A DNA stretch of 64,000 bases. It comes from Candidatus Omnitrophota bacterium. Its GTDB lineage: Bacteria > Omnitrophota > Gorgyraeia > Pluralincolimonadales > Pluralincolimonadaceae. The position numbers and the translations under genes were made by a program. The DNA is taken from the NCBI GenBank assembly GCA_028716565.1, contig JAQUPL010000001.1:147545-211544 (forward strand), given 5' to 3'. The notes beneath the pieces are model-generated. The model was not told the origin of the DNA. It worked only from the letters and a program-made list of their open reading frames with translations, and did no database searches. Numbering within the stretch: position 1 is the first letter of the stretch; every line of letters starts with the position of its first letter. This document shows, in pieces, positions 1 to 53,955 of the stretch.

Positions 1-1
1 C

Positions 2-926: not shown

Positions 927-945
927 AAGCCCAAAGGGGGATAAG

Positions 946-1395: not shown

Positions 1396-1398
1396 AAA

Positions 1399-3368: not shown

Positions 3369-3393
3369 AAAAGACAAAAGGAGGAAGCACCGG

Positions 3394-9646: not shown

Positions 9647-11332
9647 ATGTTATTGGGCCCCGCAACGGGAAATAATTTTTTCGGCAGAGACGATATACTC
9701 GCCCTGCTTAAGAAGCGCGCCGACGGCCTGCGTTTCGGTTACCGCCAGAATGTCGCCATCATAGGGCCTTCCTATTACGGGAAGACCTCGGTCATCTACC
9801 GTTTCATAAGCACCCTCCCTTTTAAGGACACGGTCCCGGTCTATATCGAGGTCAAAAACCAGGGGTTTCCCGCCTTCGCCGAAAAGTTCATCGCCGCCTT
9901 GCTTTTCAGGTATCTCGATTTCGCGGAGTTTAAGGCGTCCGGCACCGGCGGGCTCGTCTCTCTTGCCGCGGACAGGATGCCGAAGACCGCGAAGGCCGTG
10001 AAGGCTATCGAAACGCTGATAAAAGGAGGCAAGAACCTGAAGGCCTACCGCGCCCTGTTCGAACTTCCCGCTACGGCATATTCCGAGACCGGCCTGCGGC
10101 CGATAATCATACTGGATGAATTCCACCGGATCGCGGACCTCGGCATAGAAGACGCGTTTGCCGAGCTCGGGAAGTTCATCATGCTGCAGAAAGACACGAT
10201 GTATATCGTATTATCTTCCCAGATTAACCAGGCCAAAAATATCCTCGCGGAAAAACTCTCCCTGTTATTCGGTAATTTCGAAATATACGAACTCGGGACC
10301 TTTGATATCCGGACGGCCTCGCAGTTTATAAGGGCGCGCATGGCCTGCGGGCCACTTCCGGACGAACTGGTGGATTTTCTCGTCGCGTTCAGCGACGGCC
10401 ACCCGTTCTACCTCGATTCTATCCTGTTGAGCCTGCGGGGCCGGGGCGGTAATATTACCGCGGAAAAAGACACCGATACGCTTACGGCGATGTTCATCGA
10501 GATACTCTTTGATTCGAAAGGGATATTAAACCAGCATTTTTCGGGCGTGATGACCCAGCTCGACGGCATAGACAGGCATTCAGCGGCGGTCCTGCTGGCC
10601 ATCTCCAACGGCGCGAAGAAAGTCCAGGCGATATCGCAGGCCTCCCGCGTCAGGACCACAGAGCTCTCAGCCCTGCTTGAGAAATTGATAGACGCAGGGT
10701 GGGTATCCAGGCAAGGGAAGTTTTACCTGATACGCGATAAGGTATTCGAATTGTGGCTCAGGAACGTCTACCAGATAAAGGAATACCTGCTCGACCCTTC
10801 TTACGAGCCCAAGATATCGATGTTCAGCGCCGAGGTAAAAGGGTTCATAGAGAATTTCGTGAATTCTTCCGCCAGGGATATCGACGACCTTGTCGCGGGG
10901 CTTTTCACCTCGTTCAACGGCGAATTCATGGAATTGGGAGGGAAGAGTTTCCGGCTGCCGTATTTCGGCAACACAGAGGCCCGGGCATCAAAAATAGAGG
11001 GCATTTCGTATTTGAGCCTATTTGCGGAAGGCTGTACCTGGGAACTGATAGTCGGCCGGCGCCCGGTCCGGGACAGCGATGTCATGGATTATCTCAGCCA
11101 ATGCAAAGGCAGGAAAGGCGCGGTCAAGCGGAAGATCGTCCTCTCCCTGGCAGGTATAGGCGCGAACGCCAAACTTCTCGCAAAAGAAGCGAAATGCTGG
11201 ATATGGGACCTGAAGGACCTGAATACCCTGCTCGACATGACCGGAAGGCAGAGGCTGGTCCTGCCGCAATGGGACGCTGAAGGGATAGCTGAATCGCAGA
11301 AAGATCATATTACAAACACGGAGAGCGCTTAA
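9647..11332 (+). CDS. AAA+ ATPase of the archaeal-type ATPase (PF01637-like) family with C-terminal winged-helix-like extension
   Basis: 561 aa. Walker A GPSYYGKTS, Walker B IIILDEFH. Overall FFGRDDIL...ATPase layout resembles Arch_ATPase/DUF234 proteins. Confidence 0.5.
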   Translation: MLLGPATGNNFFGRDDILALLKKRADGLRFGYRQNVAIIGPSYYGKTSVIYRFISTLPFKDTVPVYIEVKNQGFPAFAEKFIAALLFRYLDFAEFKASGTGGLVSLAADRMPKTAKAVKAIETLIKGGKNLKAYRALFELPATAYSETGLRPIIILDEFHRIADLGIEDAFAELGKFIMLQKDTMYIVLSSQINQAKNILAEKLSLLFGNFEIYELGTFDIRTASQFIRARMACGPLPDELVDFLVAFSDGHPFYLDSILLSLRGRGGNITAEKDTDTLTAMFIEILFDSKGILNQHFSGVMTQLDGIDRHSAAVLLAISNGAKKVQAISQASRVRTTELSALLEKLIDAGWVSRQGKFYLIRDKVFELWLRNVYQIKEYLLDPSYEPKISMFSAEVKGFIENFVNSSARDIDDLVAGLFTSFNGEFMELGGKSFRLPYFGNTEARASKIEGISYLSLFAEGCTWELIVGRRPVRDSDVMDYLSQCKGRKGAVKRKIVLSLAGIGANAKLLAKEAKCWIWDLKDLNTLLDMTGRQRLVLPQWDAEGIAESQKDHITNTESA

Positions 11333-13452: not shown

Positions 13453-14159
13453 GGCACCGACTTTTATACCTGATCATATTAGTGGCCATACTTTTCGTGG
13501 TCTTCTATTCGCCGCTCACCTCATACCTGCTCAAGGATTTCATAACCTTTAAGCTCGAAAAGGCCCTCGACATGAATGTCGTCTTCGGGTCGGTGCGCGT
13601 GAAGATGCCGGCCCAGCTCACGGTATCCGACATAAAAGCGATGGACAAGGACGGCCTGGCGTTCACCGCGGAGAGGGCGTACCTGCGCCTCGACCCCGCG
13701 AAGTTTTTTAAGGCAAAATTCGTCCTCAGCTGCGATTTCCAGAATGTCGTCTTGAAGTCGGGCCCTAAAGATTCCCTTAATAAGCTCCTCAAGCCCTTCG
13801 GGGTCCCGTCGCAGAATAACTACGCGTTTGACGGGATAACCGGCGTTATAACTACCAGTAAGGGATTTATCTCGATCACTGACCTGAAAGGCGCCGGGAA
13901 GGACTTCAAATTTTCGGGCAATTTCACCAGGTTCCAGGACAAAAAGATAGATTATGAACTCGATTTCGGCATAAATAACCGCCTTGTCGCGGCGGTTCAG
14001 GAACGGGAGAGATCGCTTCTTGGGGAAGAGGAGAAAGACGGATGGTATTCGATAAAACTCTCTCTTAAAGGAGATCCCCATAAGCCTTCCAGTATCTCAT
14101 TCTCATCCGGAGGCATAAAATTTGAGGTAAAACCCGTAGATAAGCCGCTTCCAAAGTGA
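13449..14159 (+). CDS. hypothetical membrane-anchored protein (AsmA-like N-terminus, tentative)
   Basis: 236 aa. Single N-terminal TM; no catalytic motif. Confidence 0.35.
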   Translation: MRHRLLYLIILVAILFVVFYSPLTSYLLKDFITFKLEKALDMNVVFGSVRVKMPAQLTVSDIKAMDKDGLAFTAERAYLRLDPAKFFKAKFVLSCDFQNVVLKSGPKDSLNKLLKPFGVPSQNNYAFDGITGVITTSKGFISITDLKGAGKDFKFSGNFTRFQDKKIDYELDFGINNRLVAAVQERERSLLGEEEKDGWYSIKLSLKGDPHKPSSISFSSGGIKFEVKPVDKPLPK

Positions 14160-14235
14160 TATCTATGTGGTATCAAAAATCGTTTGCTTTCAAATGGCCG
14201 TTATGATAAAATTAGTCTTCCTCGGAGTGATATAG

Positions 14236-14859
14236 ATGCCGCCTTTAAATACCCAAAAACAACAGCAAGAGCTGTTTGATGAGTTTGTAGTAGTAAAGAA
14301 GACGAGGGGAAGGTTTTTCGGCGTATTGAACAAGTTCGATAAGCAGATCTTCCCGCAGTATCGTCTGGCTTTGTCTATTCGTTATGAGACGCTGTTCATA
14401 ATCCTGATCGGCGTCGCTCTTGTGGCGGCTATCATCTTTTCTCTGGGAGTGGAAAGAGGAAGGAGCTTGAACAGCGCGGACGTGGAAGCCCCGGCCCCGG
14501 TCGAACCGGTTGTCGAGGCTCCGTCTGTAAAGCCGGCGCCGCTGCCGGTTGCCGAAGCGCCAAAGACGCTTCCGAAGGCCCCGGAGCCCGTTAAAACGGT
14601 TGCCGTCAAACCGGTTGTAAGCGCCGCGGCATCGGCCGCGGATAAGCCTTTTACGATACAAGTGGCTTCATACAAGGGCCGCGACGCTGCGGAAAAAGAG
14701 CTCTCACGGGTCAAGGCCACGGGTTATACCGGCGAGATAATAAAAAAGGGCAATTATTTCATTTTGTGCGTCGGTTCATTCGCCACGAAAGATGCGGCGA
14801 AACAGACGCTTGCAGCGATGGGAAAGAAGTATAAAGGGTGCCTGGTAAGAAAACGCTAA
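14236..14859 (+). CDS. SPOR-domain peptidoglycan-binding protein
   Basis: TM anchor, Pro/Ala-rich linker, C-terminal SPOR-like domain (FTIQVASYKGRDAAEKELSRVKATGY...FILCVGSFATKDAAKQ). Confidence 0.6.
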   Translation: MPPLNTQKQQQELFDEFVVVKKTRGRFFGVLNKFDKQIFPQYRLALSIRYETLFIILIGVALVAAIIFSLGVERGRSLNSADVEAPAPVEPVVEAPSVKPAPLPVAEAPKTLPKAPEPVKTVAVKPVVSAAASAADKPFTIQVASYKGRDAAEKELSRVKATGYTGEIIKKGNYFILCVGSFATKDAAKQTLAAMGKKYKGCLVRKR

Positions 14860-14875
14860 AATGCAAGGAGAGTGA

Positions 14876-15196
14876 TTGATGTCGATCCATCCAAGTCTGC
14901 GTCCTTCCAAAGGGAAGGGCCATAGGTCGGTTTTTAAGAGGTTCGAACGTATAAAAATGCTGTCGGAAAAAGACAAGTGGAAGGAAGATCAGTCCGTATT
15001 CGGCCTTCCTAAGGTCAAGTCCGTGAAGATCAAGGTCAAAAAAGAGAAGGTCGAGAAAGTCGCGGCTGAAGGTGCCGTAGCGGCTCCAGGGTCGGCGGGA
15101 ACGGCTCCGGCCGCAGGCGCGGCCCCCGCCGGCGCGAAACCGGCGGCAGCGGCTCCGGGCAAGAAGGAGCAGGCAAAATCGAAGGAAGGGAAGTGA
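14876..15196 (+). CDS. hypothetical Lys/Ala/Pro-rich low-complexity protein
   Basis: 106-aa ORF with RBS GGAGAG 7 nt upstream; same strand and tightly spaced with neighbours. Low complexity, so weak call. Confidence 0.3.
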   Translation: MMSIHPSLRPSKGKGHRSVFKRFERIKMLSEKDKWKEDQSVFGLPKVKSVKIKVKKEKVEKVAAEGAVAAPGSAGTAPAAGAAPAGAKPAAAAPGKKEQAKSKEGK

Positions 15197-16176
15197 AACT
15201 TTCTTTTTGTGCAAGGTTTTTTCTCTGCGCTGTAGCCTGCCTTGTTTTTCCTTTTAACCTTTCATACGCGTCGAAAGGATCGCTCGAAGGCGGGCCCTTT
15301 ACCGGGACCGTCTCCGGTGACCGGGTGAATGTGAGGGCCGCCGACAGTATCTCTTCCGAGGTTGTTTGCCAGTTGAAAAAAGGGGAAGAGATAAACGTGC
15401 TGGGGCTTAAGGGCAAATGGTATAAGATAGAGCTCCCGAAGAAGGCGCTCGTCTATGTCACCAAGTCCAAGGTCTCAAAGAAAGACGGCCGGACGGTGAT
15501 CTCGGAAGACAAGATCAACGTCAGGGCCGCGGGCACCGTTTCCTCATCCATCGTCTGCCGCCTGAATAAAGGCACGGCGGTCAAGATACGCAAGGAATAC
15601 CTTGACTGGTATGAGATAGAGGCCCCCAAGGGTTCATGCGGGTGGGTATCCTCTGATTATGTCAATAGTGACGGAAACTCCGAAGTCCCGAAGCCCGCAG
15701 ACCTGCCTGAAAAATTAGCCCAGCTTGACGCTTCATACGCGGCGGAGCTTAAGAAGCCCTTACGCGAGATAGAGCTCAAGTGGATCCTCGAGAGATACCA
15801 GAAATTCGCCGCCGAATACAAAGACACTCCCGAGGAGAAAGAAGCGCTGCTTAAGGCGGAAGGGATAAAATTAAAAATGGCCGAGATAGGGCATCTAAAG
15901 GCGAAAGAGGATTACGACGCCAAGATAAAAAATATCTCCACGCCGCGGCCCGGAGAGGCGCCAATGGTCTCGGGGCTGGTCGATAATGTGGGCAAGGTCC
16001 ACGGACGCTTAAGCCAGTTTAAGATCGTCAAAGACGGCAAGTCCCTGGGCTATCTTACAAGCTCAAAGGTCGACCTTAACCGCTATATCCACCTTCCGGT
16101 GAACGTCTGGGGCATAAGGAAGGACGTGAACGGGACGGCGCTCTACGAGGCTGACGCGGTACAAATAATAGAGTAG
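15193..16176 (+). CDS. exported protein with two bacterial SH3 (SH3b) domains
   Basis: Signal peptide. Two repeats of the VNVRAA.....VVCQL.KG..V.........WYKIE pattern typical of SH3b. Confidence 0.6.
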   Translation: MKLSFCARFFLCAVACLVFPFNLSYASKGSLEGGPFTGTVSGDRVNVRAADSISSEVVCQLKKGEEINVLGLKGKWYKIELPKKALVYVTKSKVSKKDGRTVISEDKINVRAAGTVSSSIVCRLNKGTAVKIRKEYLDWYEIEAPKGSCGWVSSDYVNSDGNSEVPKPADLPEKLAQLDASYAAELKKPLREIELKWILERYQKFAAEYKDTPEEKEALLKAEGIKLKMAEIGHLKAKEDYDAKIKNISTPRPGEAPMVSGLVDNVGKVHGRLSQFKIVKDGKSLGYLTSSKVDLNRYIHLPVNVWGIRKDVNGTALYEADAVQIIE

Positions 16177-42228: not shown

Positions 42229-42468
42229 ATGCCTTTTCTGCTGATTTTATTATTGGTTCCTTTAGTCATCTTAATAGCCGGCTTAATATTATTCATTAAG
42301 CCGGCTTCTTGCATTAAATGGCAGATTAAATTCTACAGCAAGATCAACTGGCGAATGGAACCCATCAATATGGAAATGGAGATCAGGAATACGAAGATCA
42401 TGGGATTATTCCTGATTGGCGCGGCTATAGCAACGGTCATCTATCCATTAATTAGGGGAAATAAATGA
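42229..42468 (+). CDS. small hypothetical membrane protein
   Basis: 79 aa, two TM helices. Stop overlaps the next start. Confidence 0.3.
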   Translation: MPFLLILLLVPLVILIAGLILFIKPASCIKWQIKFYSKINWRMEPINMEMEIRNTKIMGLFLIGAAIATVIYPLIRGNK

Positions 42469-44759
42469 AAAAGATCATTTTGATAACGTTAATTTTATTA
42501 TTTTCATTTACAGGCCCTTTGATTCCTGCAAAGGAAGAGAATCTCGCTGATTCTACGCCTCCTTCCGCACCCGTAATCAATACTGATAAGAGAACAAAAT
42601 CACTAGATATGATCGTTGCGCACTGGAAAAGCGAAGACCCTGAATCAGGGATAGCCGAGTATCAGTACGCAATAGGGACGGTCCCGGAAGGCACCGATGT
42701 TCTATACTGGACCTCAAACGGGCCGAACGAAGATTGTTATGTCTATCAGGTAAGATTGGAGAAAAATAAAAATTACTATATCTCTGTGGTCGCAAAAAAT
42801 AAAGCGGGCTTAAAAAGCAAAGTAGCCACAGCCGGTCCGATAAAAGCTGCAAAAGAAGTATATATATCGGTTGAATGGCCAAGGTTTAATTCAATTATAA
42901 GGAATAATGAAACAAGGATAAGTGGCACTGCCGAAGGTGTTGATACTGTAAATATTAACGGCAGGGAATTCGCAGTTAATGATGACGAGTCATTTAAAGG
43001 CCCGACTTTAGTAGCACCCGGTTATGCCGCAAGAAAAGGGATCGATGCAAAAGACCCGAATTATATTATTATGAATTTTCCCGGGAAGACAGATATTAAA
43101 GTATCCGCCGAAGGAGAGGAATCGTTTACAACGTGTTACTATTATCAAGCTTATTTGAAGAGTTCTACAACTTCGGAGAGTTATGCTTATTCTGATGAGT
43201 TCCAATCCTGGAATATGGATGCCTTGGCAAAATCACCGTTTGCCGATTGGAAAGACTATCAATATCCATCAAGGATCAGGACTAAGAAAAATATGTCGGA
43301 AGCCTGGACGCCCTGGCAATATTGCGATTACTACTTTAAGTGGTGGAGATATTATCATAGCGCAATATCATATCCCGGGAAACCGGGCAGATGCACTTCC
43401 TCAATGACGATTCATACACTACCGGCCAAAAAAGGAGAGATTGAGCCGATGATATTGCTATTCCAAGAGTGCATGATATCACCTTATGACTTTAAAGGAA
43501 GGCGTCCTGATATTTCAGAATATAAGATGAATGGCAGACAATTGAAGTGGTTTTACGGTGATGCAAATAAATTGCCCAACTGCGCTTATATCATCCTGGA
43601 TAAGTATGTTCCGGATACCGATATCGAGCTTAAGGTCGAAGCTCCTGTTTTGAAGACCGATACTAAAGGGAATCCAACCGAATTACAGACATTTGCGTGC
43701 CGGTTCATAGATGTATTTGAAATGGAACTCGTACGCGAAACCCCGTTTAACAGCGGAAATTATAGCGTTGTGCAGACTATACCGATTTTCACCCCGGATA
43801 CAGGAGAAGGGCGAGGGTTGCCTTTGGGCGTGATTAACATGCCTTTTTTAAAGCTTAACCTTGATAAGGAATTATCTGATTCGCAGGTTGACCACTTAAA
43901 TGCTGAATTGAGAATAGCTGACAAAGTCACGAAATATACCTTAACGGAAACGTCACCCAATTCGCAGGTGTTTACGGACGAATCTAAGGACTTCGTTATC
44001 AAATTTGAGCCTTTAGTAAAAACTAGCCCAAGCGAACAAGATGATATTGTATGTTTTTTAACCTCAAAGAAAAATAACATAAATGACCAGGTTTTCAATC
44101 TTAGAGAAACCGCCTCGGATTCACTATGTTTTGAGGACGTAAAAGTGTTCATTACGGTCTGGTTTAAAGGAGAATTAAGCGACCAGCAAAAAGATATGAT
44201 GACAATCCAATTCACGAAAGGCATGATGGCTGGCGACCAGGAGCTTACGGAAACGGGCGAAAACTCGTTGGAATTTACGAACAAAGACGGCGATCTTACG
44301 GTGCGGCTTAACAACTATAAGGGTAAATTTAGTGGTGCGCTTGATGTGACTGCCCCGAACAAGGGCTATATGGACCTAAAAAGCCCAAGGCTTATTCTTG
44401 AGAGAGTCGACCCATCAAAATACTGTTTTACAAATGAAAATTTCGGCAACGGCACTAATGTTACCCAAGAAGATCCCGGAATATCCGGCGAGGGTATATT
44501 CAGGGCCAGGATAAGAGGATTGCACGATCTCAATAAATATTCTTTAAATCGGCTGGTAATCGTGATTACAGTTGATGGAGTTTCAAAGAGTTTAAAATTA
44601 ACAAAACACACGGATGGATCGTACATTACCGGAAATCTGCTATTAGTTCTGAAAGATCAAAAGGGGGAAAGGGACTATAAAGGAGTAACCGTATTCCACA
44701 CAGATGGCAAAAAGGGTGTAGGGGCTATTTCAACAAAATTTATGGAAGTAAACGAATAA
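42465..44759 (+). CDS. large secreted protein of unknown function (N-terminal FN3/Ig-like module)
   Basis: 764 aa. Signal peptide, then PSAPVINTD...WKSEDPESGIAEYQYAIGT...module. Remainder has no recognisable motif. Confidence 0.5.
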   Translation: MKKIILITLILLFSFTGPLIPAKEENLADSTPPSAPVINTDKRTKSLDMIVAHWKSEDPESGIAEYQYAIGTVPEGTDVLYWTSNGPNEDCYVYQVRLEKNKNYYISVVAKNKAGLKSKVATAGPIKAAKEVYISVEWPRFNSIIRNNETRISGTAEGVDTVNINGREFAVNDDESFKGPTLVAPGYAARKGIDAKDPNYIIMNFPGKTDIKVSAEGEESFTTCYYYQAYLKSSTTSESYAYSDEFQSWNMDALAKSPFADWKDYQYPSRIRTKKNMSEAWTPWQYCDYYFKWWRYYHSAISYPGKPGRCTSSMTIHTLPAKKGEIEPMILLFQECMISPYDFKGRRPDISEYKMNGRQLKWFYGDANKLPNCAYIILDKYVPDTDIELKVEAPVLKTDTKGNPTELQTFACRFIDVFEMELVRETPFNSGNYSVVQTIPIFTPDTGEGRGLPLGVINMPFLKLNLDKELSDSQVDHLNAELRIADKVTKYTLTETSPNSQVFTDESKDFVIKFEPLVKTSPSEQDDIVCFLTSKKNNINDQVFNLRETASDSLCFEDVKVFITVWFKGELSDQQKDMMTIQFTKGMMAGDQELTETGENSLEFTNKDGDLTVRLNNYKGKFSGALDVTAPNKGYMDLKSPRLILERVDPSKYCFTNENFGNGTNVTQEDPGISGEGIFRARIRGLHDLNKYSLNRLVIVITVDGVSKSLKLTKHTDGSYITGNLLLVLKDQKGERDYKGVTVFHTDGKKGVGAISTKFMEVNE

Positions 44760-44858: not shown

Positions 44859-45362
44859 ATGAAAATATTAAAGATACTTCTATTTTTAGTTTTAATGTTT
44901 ATTGGGGTTTATTTCTTAATAATCAGTATCGAGGGTTTTATACCCATTTTGACCAGGCATGTTGATACAAATGGAAATGATTTAATTATACTGCTGACGA
45001 TTTGTACTTTTTTCGCGGCAATGTGTCTGATAGGTTCTATTGGAAAATTATTCTTCAGAAAATGGGCCCGCTTCCTAGTAATTGTTGATGTCGCGTTTAA
45101 TATCGCGATTGCATTTTTTCTTTCCGGATTTACTGTAATAATTCAAACTGGAGTGGATACTGCCTACAGCGATTCTGTCGGCATCATTAGATACTGGGGT
45201 TTTCCAATTCATTATTGTTCGAAGGCTCCTGGTTTAGCTTGGGCTGAGTATGATCCTATGCGGTTTTTATTGAATTCATTTGTTTGGTTCATCTTTCTTA
45301 TGGCGTTTTGGTTTTATCGGAGAAAAATAGGACAGAAATCTAAAGAAGCAAGGCCTGAATGA
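44859..45362 (+). CDS. hypothetical polytopic membrane protein
   Basis: 167 aa, 4 predicted TM helices. Confidence 0.4.
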   Translation: MKILKILLFLVLMFIGVYFLIISIEGFIPILTRHVDTNGNDLIILLTICTFFAAMCLIGSIGKLFFRKWARFLVIVDVAFNIAIAFFLSGFTVIIQTGVDTAYSDSVGIIRYWGFPIHYCSKAPGLAWAEYDPMRFLLNSFVWFIFLMAFWFYRRKIGQKSKEARPE

Positions 45363-45688
45363 GGATCTGGGATATAGCGCCAAGAAAATTATGCCGCAAC
45401 CATCTCCTGGGCGAGCACAGGGAACTTCACGCCATCTGGTCTGTCCTGACACGCAAAAAGAAAGGGTATTCCCGTCATCCGGAGACCTTAAGGTGGAAGG
45501 GCAGGTTAAAGGCGCTGTATTCAAGGCACAATAAGCTCATAGCGGAGTTTAAAAGGCGGGGTTACAGGCATTACAGCCCTCTTGATTCGAGGCTGGCAAT
45601 AGGGAAGGGGAGGCAAACGCAATTCGTCAATTCGGTCAGTGAACAGGCTCAAATTTTAGGAAGGAAACACTGCGGCTGTAAGATATAA
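45359..45688 (+). CDS. pyrimidine-dimer DNA glycosylase-like protein (T4 endonuclease V / Pyr_excise family, short form)
   Basis: 109 aa. RNHLLGEHRELHAIWSV aligns with T4 endoV ADQHLMAEYRELPRVFG (catalytic Glu region). Confidence 0.5.
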   Translation: MRIWDIAPRKLCRNHLLGEHRELHAIWSVLTRKKKGYSRHPETLRWKGRLKALYSRHNKLIAEFKRRGYRHYSPLDSRLAIGKGRQTQFVNSVSEQAQILGRKHCGCKI

Positions 45689-45704: not shown

Positions 45705-47384
45705 ATGAAAAAAGTTAATGGTTTTTTAGTATTTATTACGATTATATTGTTAATTTTCCCTTCTAAAGTATCATTTTCTGTTACTGAGGAACAAATAAAA
45801 ACTTATGCTCCGAAATGCATAGAAGTGTTGAAAAGCGAAACAACTTCTGCTGAAGAAAAAAAGGAAGCAGCCACAAAACTTCGGTACTATGTAGATAAAT
45901 CTATAACGAAGCAACTAATAGAGCTTTTGAAAGCCAAGGATCCCATGTCAAGATATACAGCAGTACGATATTTGGACCTCACAAAGGATCCTTTAGCTAT
46001 ACCCGCATTAGTGGATACATTAAAGGATAAAGACGATGGAGTTAGGCGACTTGCAGCATCGGCATTACAAGGTTACTCGGGCAAAGAAGAAAATGCCCCG
46101 GCGTTTAATTCAAAGATGATTTTACGAATAACTCAATCATTACATGATCAAGATGCCAAGGTGAGAAGGTCGGTCCTATTGATATTAGCGTCTCTGAAAG
46201 ATCAGTCGGCGGTTCCGTCTGCTGTAAAGGCTTTGGGTGACCCGGAACCTGAGGTAAGAAAGGAAGCTGTTAATATATTGATAAAGTTAGATGTCTACAA
46301 GGCAGCTCCCTATCTTATGAGGGTTCTGAAAGATAAAAATGAGGATGTGCAACGAGCCGCTATATGCGGTTTAATATGTTCCAAGAACACTTCTATTGTA
46401 CCCAATCTCATAGACTTAACAAAGGATCAAGATGCTAACATAAGAAGACAGGCTATATTTTGCTTACAATTTCTGAATGATAAAAGAGCTATACCTGTTT
46501 TTATTAAATCTTTGGACGATCAAGATAAAGAAGTGAGGCGACGGGCGGTGTATGCTTTAGGCGCAAAGGGATTTGAAGGAACAGAGGTGATCGATGGTTT
46601 AATCAAAGCATTGGGCGATGAATCTGATGAGGTCCGTGAAGCAGCCGCTTTTGGTTTAGGGCATAAAGAGGGAGCTAAAAAAGCCATCCCCGTACTTATG
46701 GATGCTTACAAAAAAGGATCTAACAGATCAAGGATATCAAGCAGTAGCACACTTATTAAGCTATGTGACAAAACTGATATTCCCTTTTTTGTCGGGCTTC
46801 TCAAAAGCGACAATCCTCATCTTAAATCTCAGACATGTTACATATTGGAAAATATCGGCGATAAATCAGCAATTGCTCCTTTGCTCGAGGTTTATAAAAA
46901 AGATGCCGATGAAAATGTTAAATTAAGCGCTTTTCACGCTCTCATAACAATTGATGATTTTCCAGAAATGCGTCCTATCTGTTTAGAGGCATTAAAAATG
47001 TCTAAGCCTCAGTTTAAATGTTATGCATTATATGGGCTAATGAAATTGAAAGACGAGTCTGTATATGATGATGTTATTAAGTATTCAAAAGATGAAAATA
47101 GAGAAGTTCGTAAAGCAGCCATTGTATTTATTGGCTCGTCAACAAATAAAAATGCGTTGAAAGATATTGAACCCTTCTTGGAAGATGCGGATTTGGATGT
47201 TAGGGAAGAAACTGTTGTTTTAATTGTAAAGAAATTGGGCAAAGAATCGATCCCTATATTGGAGCGCCATGTGGATCGAACAAGCGATTCCTCTGACCCT
47301 GTAAAGGTCACCCTGAATGCTTTGAAAGCTGGGAAAGAGCCCGACGCTGCGATAATAGAAATGTTTTATACTTTTCATGAATAA
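45705..47384 (+). CDS. HEAT-repeat (PBS-lyase-like) protein, exported/anchored
   Basis: 559 aa. N-terminal signal/anchor, then about 12 repeats of the AIPALVDTLKDKDDGVRRLAASAL type. Confidence 0.65.
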   Translation: MKKVNGFLVFITIILLIFPSKVSFSVTEEQIKTYAPKCIEVLKSETTSAEEKKEAATKLRYYVDKSITKQLIELLKAKDPMSRYTAVRYLDLTKDPLAIPALVDTLKDKDDGVRRLAASALQGYSGKEENAPAFNSKMILRITQSLHDQDAKVRRSVLLILASLKDQSAVPSAVKALGDPEPEVRKEAVNILIKLDVYKAAPYLMRVLKDKNEDVQRAAICGLICSKNTSIVPNLIDLTKDQDANIRRQAIFCLQFLNDKRAIPVFIKSLDDQDKEVRRRAVYALGAKGFEGTEVIDGLIKALGDESDEVREAAAFGLGHKEGAKKAIPVLMDAYKKGSNRSRISSSSTLIKLCDKTDIPFFVGLLKSDNPHLKSQTCYILENIGDKSAIAPLLEVYKKDADENVKLSAFHALITIDDFPEMRPICLEALKMSKPQFKCYALYGLMKLKDESVYDDVIKYSKDENREVRKAAIVFIGSSTNKNALKDIEPFLEDADLDVREETVVLIVKKLGKESIPILERHVDRTSDSSDPVKVTLNALKAGKEPDAAIIEMFYTFHE

Positions 47385-47421: not shown

Positions 47422-48077
47422 ATGAAAAAGGTAATCACCTACGTAGCGCTCACATTCCTTCTTAGCTCCGCCGGCTATTACCTGATAATCAATAGTAAAG
47501 CTTTAGGCCTGAGCCCGGCTTTGCTGATGTTATACCTTATGTGGTGTCCCGGGATCTCGGGCATGGCCACCTCGCTCATATATGAAAAGAGCCTCTCCGG
47601 CATCGGCTGGAAACCGGGCAAACTGCGCTGGCTGGGATTGGGGTATCTCCTGCCTATCTGCTACGCGGCCGCCGCTTATGGGATCATCTGGCTCTCCGGC
47701 TTCGGTGGCGTCAACCATGATTACCGTATTAACGCGTTTATACTCATCGTGTTGGGCCCGGCAATAAGCGTGGTGTATGCGGCAGGGGAGGAGATAGGCT
47801 GGCGCGGGTCACGATAACCGCGATGACCTTCGCTATCGGATGGCTAAGGCTGAAATCAGGCAGTGTCTGGCCGGCGATCCTGATGCACGCAAGCCATAAC
47901 TTTTACATCCAGTGGTTATTCGACCCGCTTACGACCGAAACAGGCCCGATGTCCAACTATATGATCGGCGAATCCGGTATCGTTTTAACAGTGATTTTTA
48001 TCGGGCTGGCGTTGGTTTTTTGGAGTCAAAGAGGGCGGCTTCCGAACTTCGAAAATAGAACCGGAGTTGTGCAATAA
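47422..48077 (+). pseudogene. CPBP (CAAX/Abi-type) intramembrane metalloprotease, frameshifted
   Basis: Motif 1 EEIGWRG at the end of ORF 47422-47817, then a stop. Motif 3 HASHN appears in the next ORF (47823-48077) in a different frame. Confidence 0.5.
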
Positions 48078-48102
48078 ACGTGAAAGGAATCTTGATTAGA
48101 AA

Positions 48103-48528
48103 ATGAAGTGGGATATAGCTCAAAAGAAGGTCAGCTCATTTCTTAGAAGCGGCTATGATGAACTAAAAAAGCAAAAAGTGGTAAATATCAATCATTCTTT
48201 TCCTACCAAACCCGGAACTTACATATTTATAAAAGAACGTAAAATCATATACGCAGGTGAAGCTTCTGAATTAAAAAGAAGAATGTACAGACACAAAAAA
48301 AGAACAGAGGTAAGTACTTTAAGAAAATCTATTGGTTTCGTCGTTTTTAAACAAGCAAAATCAGGAATGTTTAGCAAACAAATCGAAAATAGGATAAATA
48401 ACTATATTGCAAATCTTAAAATTAAATATATAGAAGTTCAATATGGTAGAAAAGAATTGGAAGAGTATATTATTAATATAGAAAAACCAATTCACAACAA
48501 AGTATTTAAAGGACCGAGATCTGTTTAA
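48103..48528 (+). CDS. GIY-YIG-like nuclease domain protein (tentative)
   Basis: 141 aa, AT-rich. PGTYIFIKERKIIYAGEASELKRRMYRH resembles GIY...YIG...R...H. Downstream Glu/Asn are present. Confidence 0.45.
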   Translation: MKWDIAQKKVSSFLRSGYDELKKQKVVNINHSFPTKPGTYIFIKERKIIYAGEASELKRRMYRHKKRTEVSTLRKSIGFVVFKQAKSGMFSKQIENRINNYIANLKIKYIEVQYGRKELEEYIINIEKPIHNKVFKGPRSV

Positions 48529-48577
48529 TTGGTACCACCCTAATTTTGTGCGTTGAAAGAACAGGGGTCATAAAATA

Positions 48578-48636
48578 ATCATAACCCTTTGCATTTATAA
48601 CTGTTGCAGGGGGTTTTTGTTAGGAGTAAAATAAGA
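48578..48636 (+). repeat. about 58-bp terminator-like repeat element, copy 2
   Basis: AATCATAACCCTTTGCATTTATAACTGTTGCAGGGGGTTTTTGTTAGGAGTAAAATAAG. Hairpin with G-U pairs + T-run. Confidence 0.7.
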
Positions 48637-48726
48637 TTAGTAGCGTGCTCCTAGGCTGAGTACCTCCATAGGCACACTAATAAGGTGTAGATTTTTTGTC
48701 TTAGTAGTATAAGGAATCCCAAATAA

Positions 48727-50535
48727 ATGATTTATTCAATAAAAATTAAAAATTTTAAAAGCATAGGCAAAGAAGAACAAGTTTTAGATAATTTAGGTTC
48801 AGTCAATGTTTTTATAGGAGAGAATAATTCTGGTAAGACTGCAGGATTGGAAATTCTTTGGATTTTTGGAGAAATATTATTGGAGAATTTAGAAACAACC
48901 GGACGCATTAATTCTATCGGGTCTCTCATAGATCAAGAGTCATCTTTCCCAGCCGGCGATATTTTGGATAAAATTAAGACCATATCATCTAATATTGATA
49001 AAATGACTGATTTTGTTCATCAAAATGAAGGTAATATCGAATTAGAAATTGTATTTAATGCAAACGACTCATTTCGTGAGCATGTTAAAGATTTATCAAC
49101 GTCGAAGCGTAATCTTCAAGAAGAAAGGGTGCTAGAAGAAAAGCTAATAAGAGACGTAAAAGATATAGATTTATTAAAATTAAGGTTTATTTTAGATTTT
49201 AATCGACATGTTTTTAGAATAATTCAGGTTGGATGGGGAAATATAAATTTAGTATGCATTGAAAATAATACTTTAAAATATGTAAGTTTGGATGATTATT
49301 TAGCAGATTCGCACTTTCTAATTGAAAATGCGAATCTAAATCGTAATAATAGATTTTTTAATAATGTAATTGTTCCTCAAATACGTGAATTTCTTTCTTA
49401 TCTTCGACGCACCTATTACATTCATTCAAAAAGAAAAATAGACGAGATTATAAAGGTAGATGATGGACGTCAAGGAATAAAAGGTTCAAATCTTAAAAAA
49501 ATAATGTTTGACTTATTTCATGACGGGGACCAGCGACGTAGAGAAAAATACTTTAAAATATTAGAAGTATTTAAAAAAATTGCAGGTAAACAGATTAGAA
49601 GGGATCCTTATAAAGATAGTAGAAAAGTGGATTTAGTATTTGAAGAGGGGAATATAAGCGTAAATATTGATAATTCAGGCTATGGCTATAATCATCTATT
49701 AAATCTTGTATATAATATTATTATTAGCGATGCGAATACGATTTTAATTGATGAACCAGAAATTTCGCTTCATCCTCAGGCACAGCTGAGATTTATTGAA
49801 TTTATTAAAGAAGTCGCAAATAAAGAAAAGAAGCAATTTTTTATTTCGACTCACTCGCCATATTTCATCAGTTTAGAAGCAATAGATAAAGTATTTAAAT
49901 TTACAAAATCTGATACAATAACTCACGTTACAAGAATCAACAATGAAAAGACTGTACAAGCAATAAAAGACAAGAAGGAGGGTATTTTTAATTTTAGACA
50001 TAGAGAATTATTTTTCATGAATAAAGTAATATTTGTTGAGGGGAGTGAGGACCTAGTTGCTTTGCCGCAGTATTTTACTGAGAGCCTATCCATTTCTAGA
50101 GAATGCCTGTATCAATTAGGGGGAATTAATGATGAGAAAATAGCTCTCTTCTCGTCATTTTGTAACGACCTAGGTATAAAATATGCTTTTATATTAGATT
50201 TTGATTATCTTAGAAAGGATACAAACAAGAAGAGGTTTATCCAGGCGCTAAAAAAGATTGAAGAAAAACCCAAATCTACAAATCGGCTTTTAACGTTACT
50301 CGATAAAAATGGACTTAAAGGTAAAAATAAAGAAATGGTAAAAGATATTTGGTTAAAAGATTGGGCTAGTTATTGGAATAAAAAAACGTTGCAAAATCTT
50401 TTGAAAAAATACAAGGCCAATGGAATATTTATTATGCCATTTTACGATGTTAAAATATTAAAAGAAACAACGGCTACAGATTTCGCTTTTGAGGCTAATA
50501 AAATTATTAGTGAAGTTAATGAATACCTTTTGTAG
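48727..50535 (+). CDS. OLD-family ATP-dependent nuclease (ABC-type ATPase + TOPRIM; GajA-like or class-1 OLD)
   Basis: 602 aa, about 30% GC by eye. Walker A GENNSGKT, Walker B/D-loop ILIDEPEISLHP, H-loop STHSP. C-terminal TOPRIM VIFVEGSED and FILDFD. Confidence 0.75.
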   Translation: MIYSIKIKNFKSIGKEEQVLDNLGSVNVFIGENNSGKTAGLEILWIFGEILLENLETTGRINSIGSLIDQESSFPAGDILDKIKTISSNIDKMTDFVHQNEGNIELEIVFNANDSFREHVKDLSTSKRNLQEERVLEEKLIRDVKDIDLLKLRFILDFNRHVFRIIQVGWGNINLVCIENNTLKYVSLDDYLADSHFLIENANLNRNNRFFNNVIVPQIREFLSYLRRTYYIHSKRKIDEIIKVDDGRQGIKGSNLKKIMFDLFHDGDQRRREKYFKILEVFKKIAGKQIRRDPYKDSRKVDLVFEEGNISVNIDNSGYGYNHLLNLVYNIIISDANTILIDEPEISLHPQAQLRFIEFIKEVANKEKKQFFISTHSPYFISLEAIDKVFKFTKSDTITHVTRINNEKTVQAIKDKKEGIFNFRHRELFFMNKVIFVEGSEDLVALPQYFTESLSISRECLYQLGGINDEKIALFSSFCNDLGIKYAFILDFDYLRKDTNKKRFIQALKKIEEKPKSTNRLLTLLDKNGLKGKNKEMVKDIWLKDWASYWNKKTLQNLLKKYKANGIFIMPFYDVKILKETTATDFAFEANKIISEVNEYLL

Positions 50536-50665
50536 CTATTTTTATTATAGAGAATTCGAAATAACTAAAAATAAAATAGGGGAAGTGTCCAAAGGGATAG
50601 GAAATAATGCACAAAATTATCGGACAAAAAGCATATCAACCGAATAATTAAATAAAGGGGGTAAC

Positions 50666-51853
50666 ATGGATCTAATCTCTTGCTTGGAAGATAAAAGAAT
50701 AAATGCGACAAATCTTGCCTTTGAGATCTCAATAGGAAACTATCTTGAGATTGCGTCCTCTATTTTAGACAGTAACATATTTCAGCGCAGACGGGTAAAA
50801 TCCTCATCAACAATTTATGCGCTTTTAAAAGACGATTTAAAGTTGGGGTGCGTTATTCCTCCTCTTGTCCTGGCGTTTGAGGAAGAAATTGATGCCGGCG
50901 ATTTTGTTAAAGAAGCTAAAGCAAAACCAGAATTTTTGGTGAATTTTATGAAAAAGAATATCAAGCATCTTTTGATTTTAGATGGTCTACAGCGCACCTA
51001 TACTCTATTAGAATTACGCGATGAATTGATGAAACAATTCGATGAGGAATTATTAAAAAAAATCCTTAATAGTAATATAAGAATAGAATTATACATTAGC
51101 GTAAATCGTATTGGCATCCTTTACCGAATGTTAACTTTGAATACAGGGCAAACTCCAATGAGCTTACGGCATCAAATAGAGATTCTTTATTCTGATTATT
51201 TGAATGCTGAAGTGGCAGGACTAAGGTTGATATCCGAAGTTGAGGAGCAAAGAGCAACTCATCTTACTGATTATAAATTTAGAGATGTTATGGACGGATT
51301 TAATTCGTATCTGGAACGTAACGAGTTGCCAATTGATAAATTTGAGCTTCTGGAAAATATTAAAGGGTTAGAAAAACTAGCGAAGGAAAATCAAAACCAA
51401 GATATCTTTCGTGGATTTTTACTGTCATTCCATGTATTTCTCATGAAGATGGTTAGTATTGGTGATAATTGGAAGCTTAACCCAGAAGTAGCAAAAAGTT
51501 TTGGAGGCAATCCATTTGGAGTTGATGTTGAATCAATTTTTAAGAAAAATCAAACGTTATCTGCTTTTGGGGCCGCGGTAGGTAGATTGAAGGATTTCGA
51601 TGTTATTGATAATTTTGAGTCCTTAAATCCTATCATCGCCAATATAAAATTTCAGACCAATCCAGACGAAGGGTATAACAAGCTTCTTAAGGTACTTGAT
51701 GACATTCGCTTAAAATCTAAGAAAATTGGTAATGCTCAACGTATGTATTTTCAATACTTCTTTCGTGAATTATTTAATAGCAATACAGATTCTTATGGCG
51801 TAATAGAAGCAGCTGTTGATAATGCTTATCAGAAATACTTAAGCCAAATTTAA
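50666..51853 (+). CDS. DUF262 / ParB-like nuclease-domain protein
   Basis: 395 aa. N-terminal FQRRRV (pFQRxxVW-type) and LILDGLQRTYTL (DGQQR motif). No DUF1524/HNH tail seen. Confidence 0.6.
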   Translation: MDLISCLEDKRINATNLAFEISIGNYLEIASSILDSNIFQRRRVKSSSTIYALLKDDLKLGCVIPPLVLAFEEEIDAGDFVKEAKAKPEFLVNFMKKNIKHLLILDGLQRTYTLLELRDELMKQFDEELLKKILNSNIRIELYISVNRIGILYRMLTLNTGQTPMSLRHQIEILYSDYLNAEVAGLRLISEVEEQRATHLTDYKFRDVMDGFNSYLERNELPIDKFELLENIKGLEKLAKENQNQDIFRGFLLSFHVFLMKMVSIGDNWKLNPEVAKSFGGNPFGVDVESIFKKNQTLSAFGAAVGRLKDFDVIDNFESLNPIIANIKFQTNPDEGYNKLLKVLDDIRLKSKKIGNAQRMYFQYFFRELFNSNTDSYGVIEAAVDNAYQKYLSQI

Positions 51854-51855
51854 TC

Positions 51856-52944
51856 ATGACATTAACAATAGGAGATATGGAAGGGGAAAAAGTTAATTTA
51901 GGATTACCAAACTTTTTGCCTGGTGAAAAAGTTTTTTCTCTAGAGTTTAATGGAGAAGCAATAAATGTGCCATATTTATTGCAGGTGGAGGAACCATATT
52001 CCGCCGATGCGTTTGAAATGCATTTGTTTATTAATGCTGCAACACATGAAAATGATATTTTTCGTGTTTATGAAGTGGAAAGTGGCGAAATAATCGGATG
52101 GTTGTTTCCTGTTCAGGCGCTTCTTTCAGTTGAGCACGATTATGCCAACGATGAATATTTTCTACCTTGTGCTTTTGCTGCTTTTCAAAAGTTATTACAG
52201 GGCGAAGGCTTACCCGCAAAAACCCCGATTTTAAAAACGGAACAACTATCAATTTTAGATTTTTATAATGACAGCGATATCGTTTTATTATTAGCAAAAA
52301 ATCAAATTAGTAAAATAAAAGATTTTAATATCAAATTTTATCTGCCAGATCTTTTTAAGTATGGTTATCGGTATAAAGATAAAATAGAAACTGTGAATAA
52401 ACGAGTCAGTAAATTTTATGAAGAGTTAGATAAAAATATCAAACTACGTAAGATGTCAAGCAGGCTAATTGCTAATACGTATATATATGACTTATTTACT
52501 GATATATTAGATGATAACGATGTCATTCATGCGTTTTTATCTCTGTATCAAGTTATTGAAATAGTTATATTTGACATTTTTAAAGATGAACTGGCGAAGT
52601 GTCTAGATGATTACTCTAATCTTTCTGAAAATGACTATGGAGGCTTTTTCGATATAGGAGACAAGTTAAATTCTATCAAATCAGAAAAGAATCGAGTTGC
52701 AAATTTATTTAATTATACAAACGACACGTTGGAATTACGAGATCTATGCAATAATCTCTTGCAGCAATTAAGTTTAAAAACTGAAGACAACGCAGCGAAA
52801 GCGCTTTATTCTGTTAGGAGTAACTTGGTTCATGCATATCGATTATTTTCTAAGCCGCAAAAGATAATTTTAGAGGAAGTGGTAGAAGAATTTATTGGTG
52901 TTATCATCGATCTTGTTATTTGTTATAAAAAGGACATAAAATAA
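51856..52944 (+). CDS. hypothetical protein with C-terminal HEPN-like Rx4H motif (Abi-like, tentative)
   Basis: 362 aa. LYSVRSNLVHAYRLF resembles the Abi_2/AbiD-F-type lRNxxAHxxRlf HEPN motif. Starts 3 nt after the DUF262 gene's stop. Confidence 0.35.
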   Translation: MTLTIGDMEGEKVNLGLPNFLPGEKVFSLEFNGEAINVPYLLQVEEPYSADAFEMHLFINAATHENDIFRVYEVESGEIIGWLFPVQALLSVEHDYANDEYFLPCAFAAFQKLLQGEGLPAKTPILKTEQLSILDFYNDSDIVLLLAKNQISKIKDFNIKFYLPDLFKYGYRYKDKIETVNKRVSKFYEELDKNIKLRKMSSRLIANTYIYDLFTDILDDNDVIHAFLSLYQVIEIVIFDIFKDELAKCLDDYSNLSENDYGGFFDIGDKLNSIKSEKNRVANLFNYTNDTLELRDLCNNLLQQLSLKTEDNAAKALYSVRSNLVHAYRLFSKPQKIILEEVVEEFIGVIIDLVICYKKDIK

Positions 52945-53014: not shown

Positions 53015-53043
53015 TTGACACCCACACAAATGTGTGGTATATT
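53015..53043 (+). promoter_or_regulatory. lexA promoter with palindromic operator candidate in the spacer
   Basis: TTGACA 53015-53020, perfect palindrome CCACACAAATGTGTGG 53022-53037, TATATT 53038-53043. ATG of lexA at 53051, so essentially leaderless. Confidence 0.5.
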
Positions 53044-53602: not shown

Positions 53603-53914
53603 ATGCCTATATCAGGCTTCAACCCCAAAGCGCGGTGGGACCGCCACATTCCCGAGACCGAAGACAGTGTCGACCCCGGGATACTGGACGAAAAGATAGA
53701 AGTCCTGGTGTATTTTAAGGGCTTCGGGATCTACCCGCGCGCGTTCATCCGCAACAACAAGGTCCACAGGATAAGAAAGATAACCTATAACTGGCAGGAA
53801 CGCCGCGGCCGGGAGGTCATCAATTTCTTTTCGGTGGATACCGGGACCTGCCTGTACCAGATATCATTTAATAACACGACCTACCGCTGGCAGATAGATA
53901 GGATAATCGAATGA
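53603..53914 (+). CDS. hypothetical protein in lexA-dinB cassette
   Basis: 103 aa, no motif. 4 nt after the lexA stop. Confidence 0.35.
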   Translation: MPISGFNPKARWDRHIPETEDSVDPGILDEKIEVLVYFKGFGIYPRAFIRNNKVHRIRKITYNWQERRGREVINFFSVDTGTCLYQISFNNTTYRWQIDRIIE

Positions 53915-53955
53915 CAGGGACTGTCCCCACATGGGGACGGCCCCTGTCATGACAC

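Follow-up and report, generated by a model that had tools for sequence, protein, structure and literature searches.

A probable defence island of independent modules beside lexA in an Omnitrophota genome: a Dazbog pair next to a Class 1 OLD nuclease, with a lone GIY-YIG gene

The 4.9-kb AT-rich segment at 48-53 kb of the window (the whole stretch of 64,000 nucleotides from a Candidatus Omnitrophota bacterium that was analysed) is very probably a small, horizontally acquired defence island of independent modules and not one system. Two already catalogued defence modules, a Dazbog pair and a stand-alone OLD nuclease, adjoin each other in it, and a lone GIY-YIG gene is added to them (Table 1). 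What the analysis demonstrates is the identity of these genes, the independence of the modules, and the HEPN-like fold and motif of the second Dazbog protein, DzbB.

The four open reading frames were found where the first-pass annotation had placed them, and their translations contained every motif it had listed (GENNSGKT, ILIDEPEISLHP, STHSP, VIFVEGSED, FILDFD, FQRRRV, DGLQRT and VRSNLVHAYRLF). The gap between the OLD gene and dzbA is 130 nt, as had been reported, and the spacer between dzbA and dzbB is 2 nt rather than 3. The reported drop in GC over the last ~4.9 kb of the low-GC segment was also seen: GC is 0.283-0.331 at 48-53 kb, intermediate at 42-48 kb (~0.38-0.46), and ~0.47-0.56 in the remainder of the window, not the 55-60% that had been given for the core. 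The AT-rich segment is inserted between the gene for a CPBP-family protease and lexA, and dinB also lies downstream of the cassette as annotated; the description of the setting as defence-island-like, horizontally acquired DNA adjoining lexA and dinB was judged to be right. A search for the borders of a mobile element around 48-53 kb found neither tRNA nor integrase genes and no credible direct repeats at the flanks, and neither the ORF list nor the Pfam and PADLOC searches contained a helicase in this interval. SOS control of the defence genes was considered and rejected: the palindrome of the lexA promoter, CACACAAATGTGTG, occurs just once in exact form in the window, and its sole copy with one mismatch is inside dinB.

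Table 1. Features of the AT-rich segment, in positions of the window
Feature	Coordinates	Strand	Remarks
GIY-YIG nuclease-family gene, orphan, 141 aa	48103..48528	+	Pfam GIY_YIG_2 PF20815 and PF01541
OLD leader and probable promoter region	48570..48726	+	conserved with the orthologous locus L001; left part of the common OLD module 48570-50582
Class 1 (stand-alone) OLD-family nuclease, 602 aa, N-terminal AAA_15 ABC-type ATPase fused to C-terminal Toprim	48727..50535	+	
dzbA, Dazbog component A, divergent DUF262 / ParB-like NTPase-fold protein, 395 aa, DGLQRT replacing DGQQR	50666..51853	+	
dzbB, Dazbog component B, 362 aa, N-terminal alpha/beta domain (~1-205) and C-terminal all-helical HEPN-like domain (~208-356)	51856..52944	+	

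Judged by their sequences, the third and fourth genes are Dazbog by membership and not by mere resemblance, because both products have full-length PADLOC matches and are homologous to the B. mycoides proteins, and the genes have the same order and spacer. The PADLOC match of DzbA (E=5.1e-137) covered residues 1-394 against positions 2-392 of a profile of 393, and that of DzbB (E=6.3e-57) residues 30-358 against positions 17-338 of 341. DzbA shares 44% identity along its entire length with DzbA of B. mycoides GOE10 (E=3.5e-122), and DzbB is 30% identical to the B. mycoides protein over 325 aa (E=1.5e-39). The PADLOC matches overturn the earlier statement that the combination fits no named system. 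The gene order and near-abutting layout in the window are those of Dazbog as described (Millman et al. 2022; Stokar-Avihail et al. 2022), and among 83 Dazbog loci dzbB was directly 3' of dzbA on the same strand in 82, and the most frequent spacer was 2 nt, as in the window. No third gene recurred at these loci; the commonest neighbour, an integrase-like gene, was found at 8 of the 83. Compared with known Dazbog, the window copy has an Omnitrophota host, very low GC and a divergent DzbB, while its architecture is identical. Homologues of DzbA numbered more than 2500 at 47-75% identity, and DzbB had only 11 close word-sharing relatives. When the flanks of the module were compared with loci L008 and L009, only the ribosome-binding site was conserved. 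Dazbog had no match in phages, and 12 plasmid records were found, 3 of them near full length.

The assignment of the third gene to DUF262 by the first-pass annotation held, in the form of a divergent DUF262, with a Pfam DUF262/GmrSD_N match that is only sub-threshold (23.6 bits, cutoff 33.2). The label rests on this match, the motif and published annotation, because hhalign of the DzbA profile against a bona fide GmrSD_N protein of L001 aligned only the 21-column DGQQR region, at a probability of ~10%. With GmrSD, BrxU and SspE (DUF262-DUF1524) DzbA has in common the DUF262 NTPase-type domain, the DGQQR-like motif and the link to sensing of modified DNA. Unlike them, it has no DUF1524/HNH nuclease, and DzbB presumably provides the effector function in trans; Pfam searches found no DUF1524 domain in either gene of the pair, in agreement with what had been noted before. 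Sequence searches of the PDB with the DzbA and DzbB profiles gave no real matches, only coiled-coil noise.

The C-terminal domain of DzbB resembles HEPN domains of solved structure in being a four-helix up-down bundle, and the N-terminal domain was confidently modelled, without a recognisable relative or a solved structural relative. In the C-terminal domain, R321 and H326 of an Rx4H motif stand where helix 313-326 ends, ahead of the loop to helix 333-356. Both residues, as well as E235, are invariant in 131 sequences down to ~20% identity, E277 is nearly invariant in these sequences, and 78 of 79 genome ORFs had equivalents of R321 and H326. The residue after R321 is polar, N in the consensus. 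In catalytically active HEPN RNases, helix 3 typically ends in Rx4-6H, the R is followed by a polar residue, and an acidic residue lies upstream. The consensus of the domain matched the HEPN part of Csx1/Csm6 with E=3.9e-6, and individual members gave weak matches to HepT-like and HEPN_Apea. The bundle, the invariant R321-x4-H326 and E235 considerably strengthen the case for the HEPN-like motif that had been noticed in this gene, and DzbB is probably a HEPN RNase effector in Dazbog everywhere.

Two known systems are similar in layout to this arrangement. PD-T4-2 (Vassallo 2022) has two genes, DUF262 and HEPN, as Dazbog does once the C-terminal domain of DzbB is taken to be HEPN; however, DzbA and DzbB have no detectable sequence similarity to the PD-T4-2 models, and DzbB has an extra N-terminal domain of ~200 aa. 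The single-gene HEPN defence protein ApeA (Gao_Ape) has a beta-rich domain at its N-terminus and an Apea-type HEPN after it, an order also seen in DzbB. HEPN_Apea was the top Pfam match of the DzbB consensus (E=1.6e-4), just below threshold at 22.5 bits against 24.4, but the N-terminal domains may be unrelated, and DzbB, in contrast to ApeA, needs DzbA.

In experiments with Bacillus, Dazbog acted by abortive infection and was triggered by a phage cytosine methylase (10.1101/2022.08.27.505566), and by analogy with these systems the window pair may have the same phenotype and trigger. DzbA, as a divergent DUF262 ParB-like NTPase, would sense methylated DNA, and the HEPN-type RNase domain of DzbB, with its Rx4H site, would carry out growth arrest, while the N-terminal domain of DzbB likely serves for contact with a partner or ligand. 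The RNase activity and this division of labour are predictions. The roles could also be the reverse: DzbA would be the toxic effector and would use its ParB/DUF262 NTPase-nuclease fold on DNA or nucleotides, and DzbB would mainly restrain or sense, with a HEPN-like domain that is regulatory or RNA-binding only. Millman et al. were unable to transform a dzbB deletion, 'possibly due to toxicity'. This suggests toxicity of DzbA on its own and speaks against DzbB as the sole effector. In R-M contexts, ParB-like domains are regarded as DNases, and DzbA is far more conserved than DzbB, as would be expected if an enzyme had a fast-evolving sensor or antitoxin as its partner. Yet DzbA is without the nuclease domain of GmrSD, BrxU and SspE, and conservation of the Rx4H motif, the polar residue and the upstream acidic residues in DzbB is typical of active HEPN RNases; a toxic DzbA restrained by DzbB is a tentative reading and the less likely one.

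The 602-aa protein behaves as a Class 1, stand-alone OLD and not as a Class 2 protein, judging from its fused ATPase and Toprim with intact motifs, its best PDB match and the absence of a helicase, reverse transcriptase, ncRNA or AriB partner. Pfam supported both parts of the fusion of an ABC ATPase to an OLD-type TOPRIM that the first-pass annotation had proposed (AAA_15, E=3.2e-27; OLD-like_TOPRIM, E=3.2e-7, 31.2 bits, cutoff 23.2). Residues G31/N33/G36/K37, D342/E343 and T375/H376/S377 of the ATPase (Walker A K37, Walker B D342/E343, H-loop H376) and E438/G439 and D491/D493 of the Toprim are invariant. In PADLOC the protein matched Old (E=3.8e-31) with a higher score than any GajA model (1e-23 or weaker), and the AriA model (E=2.1e-31) matched the ATPase part only, residues 1-381. 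Its sole PDB sequence match was 6P74, the Class 1 OLD of T. scotoductus (E=1.8e-15), with only residues 299-500 aligned. In the earlier label 'GajA / class-1 OLD architecture', the Class 1 part stands and GajA, a Class 2 name, is loose. The clade of this protein is small, with 9 relatives at E<1e-80.

Like P2 Old, 6P74 and V. cholerae Vc OLD, the window protein combines ATPase and Toprim in one polypeptide without a dedicated partner, but its sequence similarity to them is low, and, whereas Class 1 OLD genes are typically isolated according to a review, it sits within a defence island. It also has OLD-type ATPase and Toprim chemistry in common with Gabija (Class 2), PARIS (Class 4) and retron-Eco8 (Class 3). 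In Gabija, however, a UvrD/PcrA-like GajB helicase is encoded directly downstream of GajA, in PARIS an AriA without Toprim is accompanied by a separate Toprim protein, AriB, and retron-Eco8 includes a reverse transcriptase and ncRNA. The OLD gene of the window has none of these partners, as had been recognised for Gabija and PARIS; its Toprim is fused, and the gene downstream is dzbA. A retron or other RNA was rejected: no Rfam family matched the OLD leader or the intergenic gaps, and the predicted fold of the leader is not unusual (z = -1.5). In phage defence, a Class 1 OLD acts as a nickase on its own (PMC12392090). By homology with P2 Old, 6P74 and Vc OLD, the window protein may have ATP-modulated nuclease or nickase activity and a role in phage defence; as an ATP-regulated Toprim enzyme it would damage replicating phage DNA unaided.

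The first gene was confirmed as GIY-YIG by two Pfam matches above cutoff (PF20815, E=9.9e-11, 42.3 bits, cutoff 22.4; PF01541, 27.8 bits, cutoff 22.6). Its product had no significant match in PADLOC or PHROG, no relatives were found in phage genomes, and there were no homologues at the 83 Dazbog loci. Since it was also missing from all the OLD loci compared, the gene was rejected as part of a system, and it would represent a lone nuclease module.

The independence of the modules was seen most directly at L001, which is the orthologous site because the same CPBP C-terminus is encoded upstream of an OLD 89% identical to that of the window. Nucleotide homology between the two is limited to 48570-50582: the alignment is recognisable from ~48570 on, with ~93% identity in the aligned downstream stretch, and upstream of ~48570 the sequences cannot be aligned. 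The GIY-YIG gene is specific to the window, being absent between the CPBP and OLD genes of L001. Downstream of OLD, L001 encodes Shedu and, in a place equivalent to that of Dazbog, an NsnA/PD-T4-2A-type DUF262 gene. The cassettes thus contain GIY-YIG, OLD and Dazbog in the window and OLD, Shedu and a PD-T4-2-like system in L001, a clean natural case of an OLD gene that was kept while the cassettes around it were swapped, with breakpoints mapped within a few tens of bases. More distant OLD homologues adjoin a PLD nuclease, an integrase or housekeeping genes. Across 87 metagenome OLD loci, which are mostly distant relatives and many of which are short (36 are >= 6 kb), neither DzbA, DzbB nor the GIY-YIG gene was found, and a DGQQR-type gene of any kind was present at 2. 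Conversely, a full-length OLD-like gene lay within 10 kb at 1 of the 83 Dazbog loci, at another position in the locus. The trio of OLD, DUF262 and HEPN that had been proposed as an operon-like, unnamed system is accordingly not a conserved neighbourhood, and two of its three genes are Dazbog.

These comparisons bear on the reading that OLD, DzbA and DzbB, perhaps joined by the GIY-YIG protein, form a single new system in which DUF262 senses modified DNA and directs the OLD nuclease and a HEPN effector, as in Menshen but with a fused OLD. The genes are co-directional and equally AT-rich. The OLD gene and Dazbog may be co-transcribed in this genome, since the 130-nt gap ahead of dzbA has no predicted terminator-like site and its promoter-like matches are weak. 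Menshen consists of the DUF262 protein NsnA, the OLD-type ABC ATPase NsnB and an effector, NsnC, which is sometimes a Toprim; its building blocks are thus common to the second and third genes of the window, the NsnB model matches the ATPase region of OLD (E=2e-20), and functional cross-talk between OLD and Dazbog is not absurd, because Menshen couples just such proteins. L001 too has a DUF262 gene within 1.5 kb of its OLD gene, although of another family than DzbA. However, the third gene matches only DzbA in PADLOC and no NsnA model, OLD precedes DUF262, ATPase and Toprim are fused, and the association is not conserved in either direction. Dazbog is complete with two genes, self-sufficient at 82 of 83 loci and experimentally active in that form, and relative to L001, where Shedu intervenes, recombination breakpoints lie on both sides of OLD. 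A single system is therefore very improbable. The same low credence is given to the idea that in this Omnitrophota lineage a Class 1 OLD was recruited as a co-transcribed partner of Dazbog, with the DUF262 sensor of modified DNA in control of a Toprim DNA nuclease as well as a HEPN RNase. That the GIY-YIG and OLD genes form a two-gene nuclease module, the small protein being a partner or regulator of OLD, is hardly credible: they adjoin in the same direction ~200 nt apart and are comparably AT-rich, but L001 retains OLD and its leader with the CPBP stop codon abutting the leader, the 87 OLD loci contain no GIY-YIG homologue, and at L002 the gene upstream of OLD is unrelated.

The value of the preferred reading, an island of independent modules, is mostly corrective: adjacency of genes in AT-rich islands should not be taken for a new system. 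If OLD and Dazbog did nevertheless act together, the trio would be a fused-OLD analogue of the Menshen logic that has not been described before. For Dazbog, whose mechanism is called unclear by reviews of 2025-26, the HEPN domain of DzbB provides a concrete effector hypothesis and ties the system architecturally to PD-T4-2. If DzbB is indeed a HEPN RNase, there would be a testable chain from methyl-DNA sensing through RNA cleavage to abortive infection.

Genes 3 and 4 of the low-GC segment, dzbA and dzbB, are Dazbog, a named system of two genes that Millman et al. 2022 described. Gene 3 matched nearly the whole DzbA profile of PADLOC-DB (E=5.1e-137) and gene 4 the DzbB profile (E=6.3e-57), and the two proteins shared 44% (E=3.5e-122) and 30% (E=1.5e-39) identity with their B. 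mycoides GOE10 counterparts (locus L037). The DUF262 call made for gene 3 in the first-pass annotation was partly borne out: the motif is present and DzbA was annotated as DUF262 by Stokar-Avihail et al. (10.1101/2022.08.27.505566), but the Pfam GmrSD_N/DUF262 match was sub-threshold (23.6 bits, cutoff 33.2). No Pfam family was found for gene 4. In B. mycoides, Dazbog brings about an abortive-infection-type growth arrest, expression of the phage SPR cytosine methylase makes the system toxic, and phages escaping it have lost CCGG methylation (10.1101/2022.08.27.505566).

Eighty-three Dazbog loci were examined, 80 from one-genome-per-species references and three metagenomic loci with the closest DzbA relatives, spanning Bacteroidota, Bacillota, Cyanobacteria, Pseudomonadota, Actinomycetota, others, and one archaeal MAG. 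dzbB directly followed dzbA in 82 of them, the spacer most often being 2 nt. In the remaining locus, from Trichormus sp. NMC-1 (L027), no DzbB homolog was detected downstream, and the partner may have been degraded or replaced. Clustering of all neighboring ORFs of the 83 loci gave no recurrent third gene, the commonest neighbor being an integrase-like family (8 loci), and nothing past the ribosome-binding site was conserved between the flanks of the window Dazbog and those of its closest relatives. An HMM built from 120 OLD homologs matched ORFs within ±10 kb of Dazbog in four of the 83 loci. Only one match, in an Aequorivita sp. MAG (L021), was a full-length OLD-like ATPase (585 aa, E=4e-47); its gene sits ~1.3 kb past dzbB, in the same orientation and separated from it by another gene, whereas the OLD gene of the window is upstream. 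In the other direction, no DzbA or DzbB match was found among the ORFs of 87 OLD-family loci (574 kb), and a DGQQR-type gene of any kind occurred in two of these loci.

Only nine relatives of the OLD protein reached E<1e-80, the closest being P0002 at locus L001 (89% identity). The CPBP C-terminus encoded at the 5' end of L001 is that of the window (ETGPMS.YM.GESGIVLTVIFIGLA.VFWSQR), and L001 is therefore the orthologous chromosomal site. It lacks the GIY-YIG gene, and its OLD leader directly adjoins the CPBP stop codon. Nucleotide homology extends only from ~48570 to ~50582, covering the OLD leader, the gene and ~45 nt past its stop codon; past the gene the aligned stretch is ~93% identical, and on either side of the interval the homology collapses. 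After the OLD gene, in place of Dazbog, L001 encodes Shedu (SduA, E=8e-82) and next an NsnA/PD-T4-2A-type DUF262 protein (E=3e-68) with no relationship to DzbA by BLASTP, followed by a helical protein whose first 93 aa contain no Walker A. The first-pass annotation had proposed the OLD, DUF262 and HEPN-like genes as a candidate unclassified system and had named two conditions that would count against it, a match to a named system and a lack of synteny elsewhere; genes 3 and 4 are the named Dazbog and the trio is not a conserved neighborhood in the loci compared, so that the proposal is not supported on either count. The two-way neighborhood counts and L001 thus indicate that OLD and Dazbog adjoin in the window by defense-island co-location.

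Gene 2 matched AAA_15 (E=3e-27) and OLD-like_TOPRIM (31.2 bits, cutoff 23.2), which upholds its description as an OLD-type ATPase with a TOPRIM domain. Walker A (G31/N33/G36/K37), Walker B (D342/E343), the H-loop (T375/H376/S377) and the Toprim residues (E438/G439 and D491-x-D493) were invariant across homologs. OLD classes are set by genomic context (PMC10568477), and by that classification gene 2 is a Class 1 OLD. It had been described as of "GajA / class-1 OLD architecture", of which the second half holds: the single match in a PDB sequence search was 6P74 (E=1.8e-15), the full-length Class 1 OLD of Thermus scotoductus, and the P2-type Old model of PADLOC (E=3.8e-31) ranked above every GajA model, while the AriA model spanned the ATPase half alone. 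Unlike Gabija (Class 2), the gene has no UvrD-like helicase beside it, and unlike PARIS (Class 4) it has no separate AriB, absences that the earlier reading had recognized; Class 3 was rejected because neither a reverse transcriptase nor an ncRNA was present (Rfam negative). A bacterial Class 1 OLD defends alone as a DNA nickase that stops phage genome replication (PMC12392090), and by analogy such nickase-type solo defense is the likeliest mode of action here.

The contig (625,636 bp) belongs to a Candidatus Omnitrophota MAG. The four co-directional ORFs lie exactly where they had been placed, and every motif quoted for them was found in the translations. GC content is indeed low across 48-53 kb (0.283-0.331), against ~0.47-0.56 elsewhere in the window rather than the 55-60% estimated by eye; 42-48 kb is intermediate and holds the glycosylase gene together with its neighbors, the HEAT-repeat and secreted protein genes. 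Searches at the island borders turned up neither tRNA nor integrase genes, nor any credible direct repeats. The 130-nt gap between the OLD gene and dzbA was correctly given, and the dzbA-dzbB spacer is 2 nt, not 3. Since no terminator was predicted in the OLD-dzbA gap and promoter-like sites there were weak, these two genes may possibly share one transcript. The upstream neighbor is a CPBP/Rce1-like membrane protease gene broken into two ORFs that differ in reading frame, reflecting either a frameshift (pseudogene or assembly error) or two genes. Gene 1 was rightly called GIY-YIG (PF20815, 42.3 bits, cutoff 22.4); its protein had no relatives in the 83 Dazbog loci or among the ORFs of the 87 OLD-family loci (574 kb), and it is an orphan, unconnected with the OLD and Dazbog genes.

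Features of the window and of the comparison loci
Feature	Location	Remarks
764-aa secreted protein	42465-44759	no Pfam family
T4 endonuclease V-type pyrimidine-dimer DNA glycosylase	45359-45688	PF03013, E=5e-27; few kb upstream of lexA-dinB
559-aa all-HEAT-repeat protein	45705-47384	adjoins glycosylase gene
CPBP/Rce1-like, first ORF	47422-47817	no PF02517 match
CPBP/Rce1-like, second ORF	47823-48077	PF02517
GIY-YIG gene (gene 1)	48103-48528 (+)	141 aa
OLD gene (gene 2)	48727-50535 (+)	602 aa
dzbA (gene 3)	50666-51853 (+)	395 aa
dzbB (gene 4)	51856-52944 (+)	362 aa
lexA promoter	53015-53043	sigma-70-like
103-aa ORF	53603-53914	no Pfam family
Inverted repeat	53911-53950	2-nt loop
dinB start	53956
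L001 (JGI 3300045917, Ga0496409_0035647)	1-4960	orthologous site, related genome; compared with window 47823-50582
L021, OLD-like ATPase	13619-15376
L027 (NZ_LZQD01000004.1), DzbA	10001-11197
L002, distant OLD relative		adjoins PLD/DrmC-like nuclease
L003-L005, distant OLD relatives		amid fatty-acid and housekeeping genes
L007, distant OLD relative		beside integrase

Downstream lie lexA, the unannotated 103-aa ORF and dinB, as the placement beside lexA-dinB had implied. A strong sigma-70-like promoter upstream of lexA (TTGACA, 17 nt, TATATT, extended TG) carries within its spacer a perfect palindrome, CACACAAATGTGTG, which is a candidate LexA operator (SOS box) for the phylum; exact matches to it occur nowhere else in the 64 kb. 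Between the 103-aa ORF and dinB, the 19-nt inverted repeat ATGACAGGGACTGTCCCCA / TGGGGACGGCCCCTGTCAT may act as an operator or form an attenuator hairpin.

Among 1.84 billion representatives searched by profile, 836 were relatives of DzbB, and 131 of these, down to ~20% identity, were aligned. Only seven columns were invariant (G81, F227, Y231, E235, Y318, R321 and H326), and the Y-x2-R-x4-H signature was present in 78 of the 79 full-length DzbB ORFs of the reference genomes. A very confident AlphaFold2 model (pLDDT 95.6, pTM 0.91) predicted a mixed alpha/beta N-domain (~1-205) and an all-helical C-domain (208-356), with R321-H326 closing helix 313-326, immediately before the loop to the last helix. 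The HEPN Rx4-6H motif sits at such a helix end, typically with a polar residue after R (Anantharaman et al., PMC3710099); the DzbB consensus has a polar N there and conserved acidic residues upstream. The C-domain consensus matched HEPN_Apea as its top Pfam family (E=1.6e-4, profile positions 5-123 of 136), at 22.5 bits below the cutoff of 24.4, and the HEPN part of the PADLOC Csx1/Csm6 model (E=3.9e-6); HepT-like and HEPN_Apea were the most recurrent weak matches of single members. The HEPN-like guess for gene 4 thus gains support from the invariant R321/H326, their helix position in the model and the consensus matches, and the C-domain is very probably a true HEPN domain. The literature searched counts PD-T4-2 (DUF262 and HEPN) among HEPN-containing systems but not Dazbog, although such an annotation may exist elsewhere.

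The OLD, Dazbog and GIY-YIG genes are most likely three independent modules. Judging from its homologs, the OLD protein would attack phage DNA with a Toprim nickase or nuclease activity under ATP control. In Dazbog, the divergent ParB/DUF262 NTPase DzbA (DGLQRT) would detect methylated DNA or what follows from methylase activity, the methylase trigger being that of the literature, and the HEPN domain of DzbB would then cleave RNA, leading to growth arrest. Because attempts by Millman et al. to delete dzbB failed, 'possibly due to toxicity', DzbA may itself be toxic and DzbB in part a restraining partner, a reading we consider rather unlikely. According to reviews of 2025-26, how Dazbog works is still unclear.

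The region thus holds another occurrence of known systems, Dazbog and Class 1 OLD, accompanied by an orphan GIY-YIG gene, at a site of defense-cassette exchange. What it offers beyond that is the HEPN domain assigned to DzbB and the comparison with L001, a clear-cut case of cassettes being swapped around an OLD gene that both sites keep.
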